From Acidobacteriota bacterium (GTDB lineage: Bacteria; Acidobacteriota; UBA6911; RPQK01; JAJDTT01): DNA of 64,000 nt. The notes beneath the pieces were generated by a model. The model ran no database searches, was not told the DNA's origin, and saw only the letters and a list, made by a program, of their open reading frames with translations. Shown here in pieces: positions 19,593 through 25,691 of the stretch. The translations under genes and the position numbers were made by a program. Each line of letters begins with the position of its first letter. Within the stretch, counting starts at the first letter, position 1. The stretch is taken from the NCBI GenBank assembly GCA_965217775.1, contig CBDCJH010000002.1, forward strand, positions 2,656,001 to 2,720,000, in the 5' to 3' direction.

Positions 19593-20723
19593 ATGAAACG
19601 CCAACAAATCTCCAGACGAAGAGCTCTCAGCGGACTGGCGGCGCTGGCCGCCGTTCCCGGCAACGCCAACCGGGTTTGGGCTGGATCGGAAGAGCCCATC
19701 TCGGCGGGAGTGCTGACCGAGGCGACGGGCGGCCACCTCCGCAGTTACCTGCAAGGGTTCGCGAGCGCCCGCGGCGTGGGCCGTATAGCGGTCTCGGACC
19801 CGACCGGGAAGAAGTTCGACCAGGCCAAGTCCATCCTGGGCGATCGGTTGGAGGGTCTCTATCGGAGCCACCGGGAAATGTTGCAGAAGGCCCGGCCCAA
19901 GCTTGTGGTGGTGACGCTGGAAGGCCATCACTCCCCTCCTGCCATCCGAATGGCGCTGGAGGCCGGCTGTCACGTCATCACCGAGAAGCCGGGCTGCGCC
20001 CGTTTGGAAGACTTCGAGCCGCTGGTGCCGCTGGCCCAGTCGCAAAAAAAGGAGCTGATGCTGGCCATGTCGACGCGGGTGAGTCAGGCGATACGGAAGG
20101 CCCGTGAGCTCATCCGAAAGGGCTACCTGGGAAAACCCTACTCGGCCACCATGGACTGGATCGCGGACCAGACCCGGCTGACCCGCCCCGAATACCATGG
20201 CTTGTGGGTGGCATCCAAGGCCAAGGCGGGGGGCGGGAAGCTCATTTACCACGGCATCCACTACCTGGACGTCCTGCAGTACCTGATCGAAGACAGGATC
20301 GACCGGATCTCGGCCCTCTGCGAGAACGTGGGAGGTCAACCCATCGAAGTGGAGGACGCCGCCGTCGTCACGTTTCGCATGCGTGGAGGATTGGTCGGCA
20401 CGCTCAACGCCGGCTACTACCTGGACCGCTTCTACCAGAACCAGATCCGGCTCTGGGGTTCCAAGGGCTGGATGCACTTGGACCTGCCCTCGGGCGACCC
20501 CCTGAAGTGGTACTCGACCCACCCCGACGCTCCCCGGGGAGTCCAACTCTTCTACTATCAGGACGACCCCGACCTGTACGGAACCCTGATCCAGGCCGCC
20601 GTGGATTTCACCCGGGGGCAGGCCCCGCCCCCCATGACCGCCCAGGAGTGCCTGCACCTGATGCGGGTGATTTTCGCCGGCTACCGGTCCGCCGAGACCG
20701 GACGAACCCAGGATCTGGGCTGA
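19593..20723 (+). CDS. Tat-exported Gfo/Idh/MocA oxidoreductase, tandem copy 2
   Basis: Same motifs as copy 1; roughly 90% amino-acid identity by manual comparison. Confidence 0.92.
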   Translation: MKRQQISRRRALSGLAALAAVPGNANRVWAGSEEPISAGVLTEATGGHLRSYLQGFASARGVGRIAVSDPTGKKFDQAKSILGDRLEGLYRSHREMLQKARPKLVVVTLEGHHSPPAIRMALEAGCHVITEKPGCARLEDFEPLVPLAQSQKKELMLAMSTRVSQAIRKARELIRKGYLGKPYSATMDWIADQTRLTRPEYHGLWVASKAKAGGGKLIYHGIHYLDVLQYLIEDRIDRISALCENVGGQPIEVEDAAVVTFRMRGGLVGTLNAGYYLDRFYQNQIRLWGSKGWMHLDLPSGDPLKWYSTHPDAPRGVQLFYYQDDPDLYGTLIQAAVDFTRGQAPPPMTAQECLHLMRVIFAGYRSAETGRTQDLG

Positions 20724-20888
20724 CAAGCGGCGACGTGGAGTATCCATGTTGCAAGTGGTGGGTGCTAATCGGTGTTTCCATCCGGGTGCACGACACGAAA
20801 GTGATGCTGGTGGTGGAGGCCAGACAACGTCAGAGATTGGGCTTAGATTGTCTGTCAGTTGCTATAACTGTCAGAGAGGAGTGTGCCC

Positions 20889-21308
20889 ATGTCTCCAGGC
20901 GTTTCCCCTCAGCCCCAGCTTCAACGACGTCGCCAGCAGTTGCTGCAGGCCTTGCTCGAACTCGGTGATCTCCGGCCCGGGTCCCTGGTGGCCCGTTACC
21001 GCCGTTGCGGCAAGCCCAACTGTCACTGCGCCCAGCCCGGCGACCGGGGCCACGGGCCCAGTTTCTCCTTGACCCGTCGCGTGGCGGGCAAGACCGTGAC
21101 CAAGATCATTCCCCCGGGGCCGGCCGTCCAACGGACTCGAGAGCAGATCGGCGAGTATCGCCGGTTGCGGAGCTTGGTGAAGGAGTTGGTGGAGGTCAGC
21201 GAGCAGATTTGCCAGGCTAAGCTGGACGCCTCTCCGGCCCGGAAGGGCCAAAAAAAGGGCTCCAAAAAACGCTGGCCCAAGAAATCCAGCGAGAAGTCCG
21301 GACCCTGA
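20889..21308 (+). CDS. DUF6788-type IS accessory ORF (orf1 of the ISKra4-like element)
   Basis: GSLVARYRRCGKPNCHCA...GHGP motif; GAGGAG RBS; ends after an A_AAA_AAG slippery site at 21251-21257. Confidence 0.8.
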   Translation: MSPGVSPQPQLQRRRQQLLQALLELGDLRPGSLVARYRRCGKPNCHCAQPGDRGHGPSFSLTRRVAGKTVTKIIPPGPAVQRTREQIGEYRRLRSLVKELVEVSEQICQAKLDASPARKGQKKGSKKRWPKKSSEKSGP

Positions 21309-22601
21309 TGGGACCCGCGGCCGCCGCCGCCCTGGACTTTGAAGCGCTTGAGACAGCCCTCCGGCGTCAAGTCCTCGAGCTGGCGGCCCGGACGGTGGAA
21401 ACGCATCTGAACCAGGATCATTCCGACGCCACTCCCCGCCACAACTGCTCCTGTGGAGGGAGCGCGCGCTACGCGGGTCGGCGGACCAAACAGTTCGTCA
21501 CCGTGCTGGGACCGATGCGATTGGCGCGCGCCTACTATCACTGCGGGGATTGCAGCCATGGCTTCTGTCCCCGAGATCGAGCGCTGGGACTGGAGGGGAG
21601 TTCTTTGTCTCCCGCCCTGATGCGGATGGTGGGGGCAGTTGCCTCCATGGTCAGCTTTCAGGAAAGCAGTCAGTTGTTGCAGGAGTTGGCCGGAGTGGAC
21701 GTGGGGACCAAACAGGTGCAGCGGTCGGCCCAGGCTCTGGGAGAGCAAGTCGCGGGCTATGAACGCCAGACCCGGGAGCCCGACTCGGGGCTCCCTTTGC
21801 CCTCGACGCTCTATCTGGGCCTGGACGGCACCGGGGTGCCGATGCGATCGACCGAGGTGCAGGGGCGGGCGGGCAAACAGCCTGATGGGTCGGCCCGAAC
21901 CCGCGAAGCCAAGCTCTGTACGGTCTGGAGTGCCGAGCGACGGGACGCCCAGGGTCGGCCCCAGCGCGACCCGCACTCGGTCACCTACACCGCGGCCATC
22001 GAGAGCGCCGCCACCCTGGATACGGACCCCCAGCTTTCGGAGTTCGCGAGAGCGAGTCGAGCGCGAAAGCCAACGACGCCGTTTTGGGCAAGCGCCACGG
22101 CAAGTCGTCCTGGGAGACGGAGCGAGGTGGATCTGGAATCTCTCCGGCGAGCTCTTCCCGGAGGCGGTGCAGATTGTCGATCGTTTTCACGCCAAAGAGC
22201 GACTCCATACGCTCTCGAAGAGTCTGTATGCCGACCGCCAGTCCGGGCAGGAGTGGGCCCAACAACGTTGCGCGGAACTCGATGCCGGTCGGATCGAGAC
22301 CCTCCTGTCGGTCCTCGCCACCGAGGCCTCTCACCACGAGGAGGGAAAAGCGGCCTGCACCTATTTCCAAGAGCATCGACATCGTATGCGTTACGCGCAG
22401 TTCGAGGCCCAGGGACTCTGCACCTCAACCGGGGTGGTGGAAGCCGGATGCAAAAACGCCATCGGGGCACGACTCAAACGTTCCGGGATGCATTGGAGTG
22501 TGCGGGGAGCTAATTCGATCATGGCCCTTCGGTGCGTTCGACTCAGTGGACGTTTTGAGGACTTCTGGGAATGGCGAGCCAATTCCAAAGCCGCAGCTTG
22601 A
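21251..22601 (+). pseudogene. ISKra4/UPF0236 transposase with an internal 1-nt frameshift near 22049
   Basis: One frame gives RAYYHC..C, GLDGTGVPMR, REAK...SEFA. The next frame continues ERVERE, LGDGARWIW, VDRFHAKE, TGVVEAGCK, RLKRSGMHWS. GCG-A-GAG carries one extra base. Could be an assembly error. Confidence 0.8.
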
Positions 22602-22824
22602 CCCGGTCGTCACTTTTTTGTCGTGCACCCTTTCCATCCCGTGTCGTTAGTGCGTGATCTGTCCGGTCCAAGAGGCACAGGGTTAGGAGGAGCGTTCTTC
22701 CGCCGGAGGTGAGGCGGAGATCGGACTGGATCCGCCGGGCGCCGTGCAGGGGGCGATGAGTGGACCGATCAACTGGATCGAGGGGCCTGAGATCGTCGAC
22801 GTCAGTCCTCCGGGAGGTCCGGAT

Positions 22825-22907
22825 ACGCCCTGGGGAGCGTCGGGTCAAGCCTCCGGCTCCTCCGCTTCGCTGCGCCCCTTCGGGTGACCCGACGCTCCCC
22901 AGGGCGT
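22825..22907. repeat. Perfect 23-bp inverted repeat with a 37-nt loop inside the IS110 right end
   Basis: ACGCCCTGGGGAGCGTCGGGTCA (22825-22847) / TGACCCGACGCTCCCCAGGGCGT (22885-22907). Confidence 0.9.
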
Positions 22908-23020
22908 GAAGAGCTTTCATGGCCGTAAGCAAGCTTCCGGCCAGGCCTGACCGGAAGTTCTACAGACGTTCCTTGGGGGACCCGACACGTCCCCTCTCCT
23001 CCTCGGGTCGCTCCGTGGGC

Positions 23021-23968
23021 TCAGGAGACCACGCGGGGTGCGACGGGCAACCAGGTGCGGTCCTGCCGGACGAGGGTGTTGGCCAGGACGATGAGCTTGC
23101 GCATGACGGCGACGAGGGCCACCTTGCCGGGCTTGCCGCGCTCTCTCAGCCTCCGGTACACCTCGGCCAAGTCGGGGTTCCAGCGCAGGGCGGACACCGC
23201 CGGCATGTACAGGAGCCGTCGCGCCCGCGCCCGTCCGCCCCGGATGAACGCCCGGCCCTGCCAAGCCCCCGACTCGCGCGGAACGGCGGCCAACCCGGCC
23301 AGACTGGCGGCGGCCTTGCCGCTGAGGGCGCCCAACTCGGGCATCTCGGCCAGCAGACCGGCGGCGGTGGTGGCCGCGATCCCCGGGATGGAGGTGAGGA
23401 TCTCCAACTTGCGGGCCCGCGCCTCGTCAGCCGCGATCAGCGTCTGCATTTTGCGGTCGATGATACGCACGTGGCGCTCGAACATGTTGATCTGGGTCTG
23501 GTGCTGCTGTTTCAACACGGGTTCGCGGAGCTGTCGGCGGCGGTTGAGCGTGGCCGTGCGCTGGCGCATCAGCCCGTCCCGGACCATCTGCAGTTCCTGG
23601 AGCCGGCGTTGCGTTTTCGATGGCGCCGGGGTCCGGCGCGGATCCAGGCTGGCGGCCAACTGGGCCAGTTTCCGAGCGTCTACGGCGTCGGTCTTGGCAC
23701 GGCTCCCGGTCGCCTCGGCGAAGCGCCGCGCCTGCCAGGGGTTCACCTTCGCCAGCGGCAGCTTCGCTTTGGACAGCGCTTCCTCGAGGTCCCGGTGGTA
23801 GGGGCCGGTGGCCTCGTAGACGACGCACTCGACCGGAGTTCCGATCCAATCGATCAGCGCCCGGAAGCCGGCCGGGTCATTGTCGAACTGGGCGGAATGG
23901 CCGTCGGCCAGCCGGTGCGCGTCCAGGTGCGCTTTCGAGATGTCGATGCCTACGGTATGCTGTTTCAT
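23021..23968 (-). CDS. IS110 family transposase/recombinase (DEDD RuvC-like + Tnp domain), apparently intact
   Basis: GIDISK, YEATGPY, KTDAVDA, SIPGIA, PRESG (catalytic Ser), GGR, AVMRKL; RBS AGGAG. Confidence 0.96.
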   Translation of the reverse strand: MKQHTVGIDISKAHLDAHRLADGHSAQFDNDPAGFRALIDWIGTPVECVVYEATGPYHRDLEEALSKAKLPLAKVNPWQARRFAEATGSRAKTDAVDARKLAQLAASLDPRRTPAPSKTQRRLQELQMVRDGLMRQRTATLNRRRQLREPVLKQQHQTQINMFERHVRIIDRKMQTLIAADEARARKLEILTSIPGIAATTAAGLLAEMPELGALSGKAAASLAGLAAVPRESGAWQGRAFIRGGRARARRLLYMPAVSALRWNPDLAEVYRRLRERGKPGKVALVAVMRKLIVLANTLVRQDRTWLPVAPRVVS

Positions 23969-23974
23969 CTTTCC

Positions 23975-24135
23975 TGTCTCCTGTGCTTGTCATTCGGGCC
24001 TTGATGCCCTTGTATCCATTCAGGACATCGGGAAAGACGGTGGCCGACCTCACTCCCAAACGGTTCGTAATGGTCCGCGGCGGTACGGTCCAGCCACCGC
24101 CGTCCGGGTCGCTCATGAGCGACCCGGACGGGCCT
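23975..24135 (-). ncRNA. Predicted IS110 bridge RNA (5' hairpin, target-binding loop, donor-binding loop); ends approximate
   Basis: Minus-strand order: perfect hairpin 24100-24131; ACCGCCGC (24084-24077, left target + core C); TGGGAG (24058-24053, complementary to core + right target); ATGGATAC (24019-24012, left donor + core C); GACAAG (23991-23986, complementary to donor CTTGTC). Confidence 0.82.
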
Positions 24136-24150
24136 ATTTAAACAGACAAG

Positions 24151-24294
24151 CGGCGGTTTCCAACCGCCGACCAGGGGGGCAGGGGGGACGGAGTCCCCAC
24201 TCTACACTTTCCGGTCACCGAATCGCGTAGCAGCACAGAAGAATGGGGGACTAGAAGTCCCCTCCCAGTGGGCGACAAGAAAGTCACCCCTCCA
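24151..24294. repeat. Remainder of the interrupted REP plus two inverted REP units
   Basis: CGGCGGTTTCCAACCGCCG..., GGGGGACTAGAAGTCCCCTCCCA, GGGCGACAAGAAAGTCACCCCTCCA. Confidence 0.8.
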
Positions 24295-24381
24295 GCGCGT
24301 CCGCGTTACAATGCGGAGATTGGGGTTGGCCGATCGACGCTTTCCGCGGCTTCCGCCGGAGCGTCCTCACTGGAGCCGAGC

Positions 24382-24737
24382 GTGTCTCACCGATGGAATG
24401 ACTGGCTCGCACAGTCGGAACACGATCTCGGGCAGGCCGTCGCTTCGCGGCGCACCAAGCCGGTGAGAAGGCGGTGAAGGCACTCCACTTGGCTCAGGGC
24501 CAGAAAGCTCGGGGTCCCGTCATATCGAGGCTATTGAGCCAACTCTCTCCACATCCGCCCACCGAGTTGATCGACCGGGCACGGATTCTGGACAATTACT
24601 ATGTCGCGGCCCGGTATCCGCACGGACACGCGGACGGTCCGGCCTTCGAACACTACGGATCGCTCCAGAGCTCTCAGGCCGTTACACATGCCCGTAACCT
24701 CCTCGACTTCGTAAACAAGGCGTTGGCCAACGCCTGA
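24382..24737 (+). pseudogene. HEPN-domain protein, frameshifted by an internal deletion; no MNT partner seen
   Basis: VSHRWNDWLAQSEHDLGQAVASRR in one frame, then FAAHQAGEKAVKALH...LDNYYVAARYPHGH in another. The usual HEWAC-like segment is missing at GCTTCGCGGCG (24442-24452). Confidence 0.8.
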
Positions 24738-24896
24738 AATCTTGCCTAAGACACTACGGGAGCGGTCCGCCGTCCAAGTGCCCGGTCGGTAAGGATACGC
24801 CGCGCGCTCGGGGGAGAAGCTGACGCAGGCCGTCGGATGGAGCCGCCCACCGCGTCGATGGGACGCCGGATCATGGCCATGGACCGCTGCGGGAAG

Positions 24897-25691
24897 TCAC
24901 GCCGGCAAGCGGGTGCGAGCCGGCTTTTCGCCGGTTCGCAGCCAGTGGACGATGTCCTTCGTCCGCATTACATAGCCCCAGACCCGGCCGAAGAGGATCT
25001 GCACGGCTTCGGCGCTGCCGGCGTCGAAACCGGCGCAGGCGTCGGCGGCCATGATGACGTGGAATCCCCGGTCCGCGGCGTCGATGGCCGTGGCCAGGAC
25101 GCACTGATCCGTCGCCAGACCGGTCAAGACCAGGGTCTCCACCTTCATGTTGCGCAGGAGGAGATCCATGGGTGCGCTGTGGAAGGCGCTGCTGGTGTTC
25201 TTGTCCAGGACCAGATCTCCCCTCCGGGGCGCCACCTGATCCAGGATCTCGTGTCCCGGATCCCCGCGAACCGCCATATGGCCCGATGAGCCGTCGCCGG
25301 AGCAGATTGCTACCTCCTCCCGCCCCCGCCGCCGGACGATCAGGTCTGGGCCGCCCGGCAAGAAAGCGCCATGGCGCGTGTACACCACCGGCCGGTCCCG
25401 CTCCCTGAAGGCGGCGAGAAGTTGCCGGATATTGGCCACCATTCGCTCCGCTTGAAGCGAGAAATCGTTGAAGACCGGGCTGCCGCTGGACTTCACGGTG
25501 TGGGCCAGATGGCCTTCGCTGTCCAGGGCGTAGTGCTGAACGTCGATCACACCCAGTGCGCACGACTCGGGACGGATCGGGAGCTCGAAGCCGAACCCCG
25601 CCTGCGGCCAGTCCCGGTCGTCGACCAGTGTGATCTGCTTTCCAGCCAAGAACGCCTCCGGAGAGGGTCTCCTTATATCAGACCCGGACAA
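24897..25691 (-). CDS. Isochorismatase-family cysteine hydrolase
   Basis: GVIDVQ, DKNTSSAF, TGLATDQCVLATAIDAADRGF. Start uncertain. Confidence 0.9.
   Translation of the reverse strand: MSGSDIRRPSPEAFLAGKQITLVDDRDWPQAGFGFELPIRPESCALGVIDVQHYALDSEGHLAHTVKSSGSPVFNDFSLQAERMVANIRQLLAAFRERDRPVVYTRHGAFLPGGPDLIVRRRGREEVAICSGDGSSGHMAVRGDPGHEILDQVAPRRGDLVLDKNTSSAFHSAPMDLLLRNMKVETLVLTGLATDQCVLATAIDAADRGFHVIMAADACAGFDAGSAEAVQILFGRVWGYVMRTKDIVHWLRTGEKPARTRLPA

Follow-up and report, generated by a model that had tools for sequence, protein, structure and literature searches.

A probable IS621-type insertion sequence with a predicted bridge RNA, placed beside a REP-like hairpin in an Acidobacteriota genome

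The 64,000-nucleotide stretch analysed here (the window; positions 2,656,001 to 2,720,000 of contig CBDCJH010000002.1, GenBank assembly GCA_965217775.1, from an Acidobacteriota bacterium) carries on its minus strand an element that is, with high confidence, a complete insertion sequence (IS) of the IS110 group and IS621 type, including its bridge RNA. The reading is based on features seen directly in the DNA: the boundaries of the element, the match of its guide segments to the flanking DNA and their covariation with it, covariation within the RNA stems, the family and catalytic residues of the recombinase, and the family of repeats that is targeted. The element spans from the CT at 24150-24149 to ATGGATA-CT at 20747-20739; coordinates are window positions, read on the minus strand unless stated otherwise. 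Its parts are the following.

24149..24150, minus strand: core CT of the left junction, upstream of which all four copies in the genome diverge.
23969..24148, minus strand: left end (LE), 180 nt, encoding the predicted bridge RNA; right donor (RD) TGTC at 24148-24145.
23021..23968, minus strand: IS110-family recombinase, 315 aa, with D9, E52, D94, D97 and S233-G234, identified by open reading frame (ORF), profiles and structure-homolog alignments.
20741..23020, minus strand: right end (RE); left donor (LD) ATGGATA at 20747-20741, -35-like TTGCAA at 20754-20749.
20735..20740, minus strand: core CT (20740-20739) and right target (RT) CCAC (20738-20735) of the right junction, from the junction sequence and copy comparison.

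The boundaries are fixed independently, because four copies of the element in the same genome diverge exactly outside both CTs. These copies, found in a search of the genome with a 1,561-nt query and 97-100% identical, all start with CT-TGTCTG and finish with ATGGATA-CT, and their flanks are unrelated beyond these points. Two of them (c2 and c4) are intact copies of about 1,555 bp, and the other two (W, the window copy, and c3) are composites of 3.4 kb. The 315-aa ORF is intact in all four, and CT is present at both junctions in 4/4 copies with no longer target duplication. In the window copy the LE junction reads ACCGCCG (24157-24151), CT (24150-24149), TGTC (24148-24145) and the RE junction ATGGATA (20747-20741), CT (20740-20739), CCAC (20738-20735); a short sub-terminal inverted repeat, AAC...GTT, flanks the donor.

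Within the LE, the strings ACCGCCGC, GGAG, ATGGATAC and GACAAG follow one another as they would in an IS621-type bridge RNA, distributed over these segments:

24100..24131, minus strand: 5' stem-loop, a perfect 16+16-nt palindrome (inverted-repeat search, fold), with compensatory changes in relatives at all 12 pairs.
24039..24099, minus strand: target-binding module, an outer stem around the left target guide (LTG) ACCGCCGC at 24084-24077, the right target guide (RTG) (TG)GGAG at 24058-24053 and the handshake-position UG at 24052-24051.
23976..24026, minus strand: donor-binding module, with outer stem GUCCUG/CAGGAGAC and inner hairpin GGGC/GCCC.
Guides of the donor module, minus strand: left donor guide (LDG) ATGGATAC at 24019-24012, right donor guide (RDG) GACAAG at 23991-23986, handshake-position CA at 23985-23984.

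Much of this had been proposed in a first-pass annotation made from the letters alone. The target and donor it gave, ACCGCCG-CT-CCAC and ATGGATA-CT-TGTC, are those read from the two junctions at 24157-24145 and 20747-20735, and its perfect 32-nt palindrome at 24100-24131 is the 16+16-nt stem-loop listed above. Of its four readable guides, the LTG, LDG and RDG are placed as claimed, but the RTG amounts to only 4 bp: within TGGGAG (24058-24053) the complement to the CT-CC of the window copy is GGAG alone (24056-24053), and the extra TG mismatches the flank. The IS621-type layout with a CT core and a repetitive extragenic palindromic (REP) target holds up, as seen from the covariation of guides and DNA and from the family of REP-like hairpins described below, and the check it advised, whether other genomic copies sit in the same REP motif, turned out in its favour, as W and c3 lie at ACCGCCG, c4 at GTCGCCG and c2 at GCCGCCG.

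The chance of finding such strings was gauged by simulating 40,000 LEs of 180 nt with a first-order Markov model. The LTG 8-mer ACCGCCGC was present in 232 of the simulated LEs, the LDG 8-mer ATGGATAC in 69 and the RDG 6-mer GACAAG in 2,434; all four guide strings together occurred in none, the product of the marginals being 4.7e-7.

Guide and flank also vary together. The covariation set comprised 29 close loci, namely the four own-genome copies and L021-L045, with junctions located by the donor guides alone; L032 (no right junction), L034 (truncated left end), L035 (left junction replaced) and L036 (a different element) were dropped, leaving 25 loci with a complete RNA and both junctions. 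The four own copies and the 21 copies of relatives share the same donor ends. The LTG agrees with the seven bases to the left of the core at 7/7 positions in 21 of these loci, at 6/7 in 3 and at 5/7 in 1, and the mean match of 6.8 compares with 5.26 when the flanks are shuffled, none of 10,000 shuffles reaching the observed value. The LTG variants ACCGCCG, GTCGCCG, ACCGACG and GCCCTCG are found in matching sites. Most persuasive are the contrasts inside single genomes: in one relative genome, three copies with an ACCGACG LTG lie at ACCGACG-CT and ten with an ACCGCCG LTG at (A/G)CCGCCG-CT, and in the genome of the window both W and c3 carry the LTG ACCGCCG at that very site, while c2 and c4 carry GTCGCCG, c4 being at GTCGCCG and c2 at GCCGCCG. 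On the donor side, RDG variants in the relatives from Candidatus Foliamicus, a gammaproteobacterium, track the start of the LE, TACAAG occurring with CTTGTA and GATAAG with CTTATC.

To the right of the core, the consistent match in close relatives is limited to two bases (CC); wild-type IS621 is described with an 11-bp target and a 4-bp RTG (PMC11208160). In distant lineages the RTG does fit the flank. That of the alphaproteobacterial copies, read by eye, is CGTGAG against CT-CACG, and their LTG plus core, TTCGTGT-CT, equals the flank in 27 of the 35 loci whose junction could be read. An RTG complementary to CT-CCCTC is found in a second IS110 lineage of the genome that holds the window, and one complementary to CT-CCCGT in a genome of the same order, each at 7/7 positions. 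The handshake positions, by the rule described for IS621 (PMC11208158), are readable as well: the base after the RTG core is invariably U, facing donor A7, and directly after the RDG stands C, opposite target G7, or A in a lineage with T7 as the target base. At the second handshake base, wobble is the best pairing.

The guide strings lie in an RNA that is predicted to be strongly structured. The LE (185 nt) folds with a minimum free energy (MFE) of -89.9 kcal/mol (z = -7.1; 0/200 shuffles as good) into a 5' hairpin followed by two modules, with the donor guides in an internal loop even without constraint; when the guide bases are forced to be single-stranded, the outer stems and the donor hairpin remain. 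An RNAalifold alignment of 10 sequences showed compensatory changes in 8/39 pairs. This alignment, with a hand-adjusted structure, provided a covariance model (CM) that was used to align 18 matches with E <= 1e-9, two of which are partial matches that have no target loop (L035:833-1040 and L103:1965-2091). In the CM alignment of 18 sequences, 95.5% of the cells are paired and 19 of 34 pairs change on both sides, a result that 0/500 shuffles reach, and sliding the partners by 1-3 columns reduces pairing to 35-52%. Helices 3 and 4, the outer stem of the target module, are 96-98% paired, and helices 6 and 7 of the donor module 98-100%. The earlier proposal that the left end would fold with its guides in internal loops is therefore borne out for the donor guides, which lie in an unconstrained loop, but the target inner stem is weak. 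Some 10 nt ahead of the recombinase's ATG lies a Shine-Dalgarno-like AGGAG that overlaps with the 3' strand of the donor-module stem, an arrangement that could couple RNA folding to translation. Read depth over the LE was high in an RNA-labelled run and equally high in DNA runs, which fits the summing of multiple copies, and it is not used here as evidence.

The recombinase matches Pfam families PF01548 and PF02371 (E = 3.9e-23 and 1.4e-18, both above the cut-off) and scores 204 bits against the NCBIfam model NF033542, 'IS110 family RNA-guided transposase', whose cut-off is 140. A phmmer comparison with solved structures over residues 3-299 gave E = 2.1e-34 for ISCro4 (PDB 9t56) and E = 1.5e-30 for IS621 (8wt6_A). 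The catalytic residues of IS621 are D11, E60, D102, D105, S241 and G242 (PMC11208158), and in the alignment to 8wt6_A these correspond to D9, E52, D94, D97 and S233-G234, in agreement with the first-pass annotation, which had the DEDD residues and the catalytic serine retained. The same annotation described a compact, complete ortholog with its own target and donor specificity. The ORF is complete at 315 aa and the target differs from that of IS621, but the donor is shared by relatives and the protein falls short of IS621 (326 aa; PMC11208158) by only 11 residues.

The target belongs to a repeat family that is abundant in the genome:

24151..24169, minus strand: REP-like target hairpin CGGCGGT / loop TGGAA / ACCGCCG, whose 3' arm (24157-24151) is the left target (LT).
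3' arm ACCGCCG: 65 copies in the genome.
3' arm GCCGCCG: 40 copies.
3' arm GTCGCCG: 31 copies.

At least 143 perfect 7-bp hairpins of the form CGGCGRN-loop-NYCGCCG are followed by CT, and 132 of them go on with CC. The 11-mer ACCGCCGCTCC has 152 occurrences and GTCGCCGCTCC has 60, where 12.6 would be expected of either. The insertion point is immediately 3' of the hairpin, and the target consists of the 3' arm plus the CTCC tail, 11 bp in all; the two LTG alleles of this genome, ACCGCCG and GTCGCCG, match two of the three arm variants. A short GC-rich palindrome in many copies fits the description of a REP, and tandem hairpins are seen in the flanks. In the window the insertion site is 17 nt downstream of the stop codon of a gene. 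Of 49 own-genome matches, 27 are to the flank alone and contain the 52 nt on the left of the IS, which makes the REP a component of a larger composite repeat. More short GC-rich hairpins (for example GGGGACTTCTAGTCCCC and GGGGACTCCGTCCCC) adjoin the REP at 24185-24262 on the minus strand. The genome contains three matches to the Y1-transposase family (PF01797), one of which (G000:C2:4665981-4666208, about 400 bp past the right end of c3) is a candidate REP-associated transposase.

The 3.4-kb separation of the junctions in the window copy results from a second IS that sits within the RE:

20784..22630, plus strand: nested ISKra4-family IS, 1,847 bp, identified by terminal inverted repeats, target duplication and profile match.

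Its terminal inverted repeats begin GGGTGCACGAC, and a 9-bp target duplication surrounds it (20775-20783 and 22631-22639). Its transposase is divided between two reading frames, one covering positions 17-249 of the NF033572 profile and the other 241-421, and a small zinc-finger-like ORF (20883-21308) stands ahead of the transposase. This IS is present in the genome in four full copies, with a fifth that is partial. In 4/4 public runs, contigs skip exactly the nested insert, joining 20774 to 22631 (1,856 bases, 9 ambiguous). The composite c3, at G000:C2:4662165-4665574, contains the same nested IS at the same position and with the same 9-bp duplication as window 20741-24150, and is 99.2% identical to W, with 26 mismatches and one 2-nt indel over 3,409 aligned bases. 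Since the same composite is present at two loci with unrelated flanks, it moved as a unit after gaining the nested IS. The RE also contains a perfect inverted repeat (22825-22907; 23-nt arms, 37-nt spacer); one RNA-library contig of a relative is missing 76 nt here (joint 22828 to 22905), and this repeat is therefore read as an inserted small palindromic element.

By analogy with IS621, the element would leave its site as a circle in which the RE is joined to the LE over the CT core. The joined ends would bring the -35 TTGCAA of the RE to the -10 TTTAAA/TTAAAT of the LE and so form a promoter for a non-coding RNA, roughly 170-180 nt long, transcribed from the LE. The joined-end hexamers, TTGCAA (20754-20749) and TTTAAA/TTAAAT (24142-24136) with a 16/17-nt spacer, score 8/12, and those at the same positions in the Foliamicus relatives score 10-11/12, both figures counting consensus matches only. 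The first loop of the RNA would pair with the REP target, its GGAG reading the top strand of the core plus CC, and the second loop would pair with the element's own joined ends, ATGGATAC reading the left donor and GACAAG the core plus TGTC. Strand exchange at CT would follow, carried out by a recombinase tetramer (DEDD/Ser, 315 aa per subunit), and the predicted outcome is an element placed directly 3' of a REP-like hairpin. IS621 is the model for circle formation, for the promoter at the junction, for expression of the RNA and for the chemistry of exchange.

Several findings weigh against a complete, RNA-guided element of this kind. In the unconstrained MFE structure, part of the LTG pairs with the RTG region, and the three-pair inner stem of the target loop (helix 5) is only 79% paired, its middle pair being unpaired in 10 of 16 sequences; relatives show clearer inner stems in other registers. 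The CM alignment was fitted to the model and hence leans towards the structure. A search of 22000-25000 against Rfam at E <= 10, a covariance-model check that the first-pass annotation had recommended, gave no bridge-RNA-like match to the LE, only chance-level matches of microRNA and small-RNA families to palindromes. GGAG was present in 30,609 of the 40,000 simulated LEs (77%), so the RTG is uninformative alone. Over the 25 close loci its run past the core averages 2.92 against 2.77 in shuffles, a value reached in 1,507/10,000 and not significant, and in the window copy the next two RTG bases predict CCCA where the flank reads CCAC. The ninth base of the LTG is G in the window allele and is left unpaired at the second core position. 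Three copies in a relative Acidobacteriota metagenome-assembled genome (MAG), L029, L032 and L033, have the RTG GCAG instead of GGAG; L029 and L033 lie at different, otherwise ordinary sites, and the right junction of L032 was not found. The ordinary sites of the GCAG copies suggest either mismatch tolerance or guidance in trans by the RNAs of sister copies. The RE is longer than the LE (424 nt in the intact copies and about 2.3 kb in the window copy, against 180 nt), which is atypical for the IS110 group, where the LE is usually the longer (PMC11208160), although this is a typical rather than an absolute feature; in relatives the RE shrinks from about 310 nt down to a few nt, and the long RE is for this reason taken as a lineage-specific expansion. 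Neither a circle junction nor transcript ends were seen in the public runs, of which contigs only were searched, so that the lack of a circle joint proves nothing. Joints from 24169/24170 back to 20737 (3-4 letters between) do occur in these runs; they were considered as circle junctions and rejected, and are read as two IS copies around one REP in other strains.

The weakness of the RTG in this lineage, where it carries little information, is also the opening for a different explanation, in which the guide-like strings are not RNA guides: the protein would read the REP hairpin and the ends directly, and the matches would be remnants of old junctions or mimicry at the DNA level. The target is indeed a structured hairpin, a target stem-loop is reported to aid recognition in ISPpu10 (bioRxiv 10.64898/2026.03.19.712850), and the RNA of the present element is predicted from its sequence. 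Such an explanation would nevertheless have to account for an LTG that varies base for base with the flank both inside and across genomes, an RDG that varies with the start of the left end, and guide strings placed in loops bordered by stems that covary as RNA helices, in an element whose protein is a close relative of IS621 and ISCro4, for both of which RNA guidance is reported to have been shown experimentally (PMC11208160, PMC11208158). We consider it very improbable. Still less credit can be given to a right boundary at GTCGCCG-CT, 13 bp further right, with the ATGGATA match as a coincidence. That boundary is suggested by a 10-bp direct repeat, GCCGCTTGTC, which spans the left junction (24154-24145) and recurs just past the right one (20731-20722, both on the minus strand), but the repeat is absent at the other three copies, all four copies and the relatives share sequence through ATGGATA-CT and then diverge immediately, and a related strain's IS-free contig at this locus reads REP-CT-CC-TGTCAGCC (joint 20725 to 24165, 19 letters between). 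The boundary was rejected on the copy comparison and on this contig, which also identifies the TGTC beyond the right junction as native flank. Past the right junction, at 20722-20734 on the minus strand, GTCGCCG-CT-TGTC forms a second REP-arm-like half-site that has no 5' arm; the IS-free strain has a full GTCGCCG-type hairpin here, followed by CT-CC-TGTCAGCC, and the local REP arrangement thus differs between strains.

A further alternative accepts a genuine IS110 element but regards the window copy as a dead relic, inactivated by the nested IS, with its guides as a fossil. The 1,847-bp nested IS does sit within the RE; with some 300 candidate 11-mer sites in the genome there are only four full copies and one solo left end, and contigs of the public runs showed neither a circle junction nor an empty-site polymorphism in the same strain. 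Yet the composite at the second locus, 99.2% identical and with unrelated flanks, indicates movement after the nested IS was acquired. Moreover, the ORF, the bridge RNA and both ends are intact, the -35-like box is preserved between the nested IS and the end of the element, and IS110 elements with cargo are reported to be active (bioRxiv 10.64898/2026.08.14.744561). A dead relic is therefore judged unlikely, though clearly less so than the two explanations above, and a complete IS621-type element with its bridge RNA remains the preferred reading.

A protein-seeded scan yielded 68 loci. The closest relatives are in Acidobacteriota MAGs (85-94% protein identity), followed by Candidatus Foliamicus (64-68%), one partial locus in a Maritimibacter MAG (47%) and about 40 copies in one alphaproteobacterial MAG (37-44%). 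The donor ATGGATA-CT-TGTC is common to relatives down to 41% protein identity. A survey of the phylum with the RNA model gave matches in 3 of 151 genomes, including that of the window. The roughly 40 alphaproteobacterial copies at L046-L086 (41-44% identical) lie nearly all at TTCGTGT-CT-CACGGCAG; in their donor ends they agree fully with the window element, and several are broken by other insertions.

The second IS110 lineage of the window's own genome has four copies (G000:C2 near 3136405, 6039619, 5760224 and 1656645; L005-L008, L093-L096) at about 66% nucleotide identity. The donor ends ATGGATA-CT-TGTC are unchanged, the LTG matches the flank at 5/7 positions, the left end exceeds 400 nt, and all four copies lie in one repeat of about 170 bp with inverted ends, resembling a miniature inverted-repeat transposable element. 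A third, decayed relative at G000:C2:4368220-4368393 (L097) has a deletion in the left donor guide and a broken ORF. The two partial RNA-model matches, L035:833-1040 and L103:1965-2091, have ATGGAGAC and GACAAG/GACCAG as their donor-loop strings and are followed, about 460 nt downstream, by a full bridge RNA. They may be what remains where one IS110 element landed in the left end of another.

The solo left end at G000:C2:5910967 (minus strand; L009/L098) begins at a normal REP junction, ends exactly after the LTG-coding GTCGCCG-CT, and then runs on as a REP tail (CCCG) and another hairpin. Such a structure would be expected if the DNA coding for the guide and a REP site had recombined, or if the DNA between them had been deleted. 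The LTG-coding DNA is itself a copy of the target half-site and could undergo recombinase-mediated half-match recombination with a neighbouring REP; a plain 9-bp microhomology deletion would give the same product, and half-match recombination has already been described (bioRxiv 10.64898/2026.08.31.748434). This raises the tentative and rather doubtful notion of a natural experiment in guide evolution, in which two co-resident alleles are each matched to a different subfamily of one REP hairpin, half-match recombination of LTG-coding DNA with a REP leads to self-truncation, and guidance occurs in trans.

The mechanism class has been known since 2024 and was discovered through natural covariation of guides and targets, with REP targeting known for the class (PMC11208160); the element represents no new kind of biology and would not surprise a specialist. 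A literature search for 'bridge RNA' with IS110 and Acidobacteriota found no paper in the library covered, and the ortholog tables of PMC11208160, which run to thousands of entries, may already list this cluster. The value of the element is that of a clean and compact case found in nature, in a host group that is under-sampled, with target, donor and even handshake positions open to reading. Single-base changes in the guide track single-base changes in the target within one genome, providing natural retargeting alleles. Members in Acidobacteriota, Gammaproteobacteria (Candidatus Foliamicus) and an alphaproteobacterial MAG keep the donor ends and differ in their targets, and the composite shows that cargo is tolerated, having moved while carrying another IS. 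The element is a reasonable candidate ortholog for bridge-recombinase engineering panels and is useful for studying how bridge RNAs diversify against REP families.

The testable defining features of IS621-type systems fit the element, except for the tendency in end length, and the junction promoter is a prediction from consensus matches. Like IS621 of E. coli, with its 177-nt bridge RNA, it has the domain pair and catalytic residues, a CT core and REP targeting; an LE-encoded RNA in which a 5' stem-loop precedes the target and donor internal loops; an 11-bp target (7-nt LT, core and 2-nt RT) read with a 4-bp RTG, as given in PMC11208160; and a donor flanked by a short sub-terminal inverted repeat. 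Unlike IS621, it resides in the phylum Acidobacteriota, has the target ACCGCCG-CT-CC and the donor ATGGATA-CT-TGTC, leaves the second core position unpaired in this LTG allele, has a degenerate target inner stem and an RE longer than its LE, and is known from its sequence alone. ISCro4 (PDB 9t56), the best match among solved structures and compared by sequence, is larger (341 aa against 315 aa). As in ISPpu9 and ISPpu10 of Pseudomonas putida, insertion occurs beside multi-copy GC-rich intergenic hairpins (10.64898/2026.03.19.712850, PMC12288879). For ISPpu10 the target stem-loop is itself described as a specificity determinant (10.64898/2026.03.19.712850), whereas here the guide-matched LT is the hairpin's own 3' arm. 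The IS1111 group with its seekRNA belongs to the same family and shares the DEDD/Ser recombinase and an RNA guide, but is described as having the RNA in the RE and long sub-terminal inverted repeats (PMC11208160), unlike the present element with its RNA in the LE. Finally, as reported for cargo-bearing IS110 elements (10.64898/2026.08.14.744561), extra DNA between the coding sequence and the RE is tolerated and the element still moves, although the cargo in this case is merely another IS, of the ISKra4 family.

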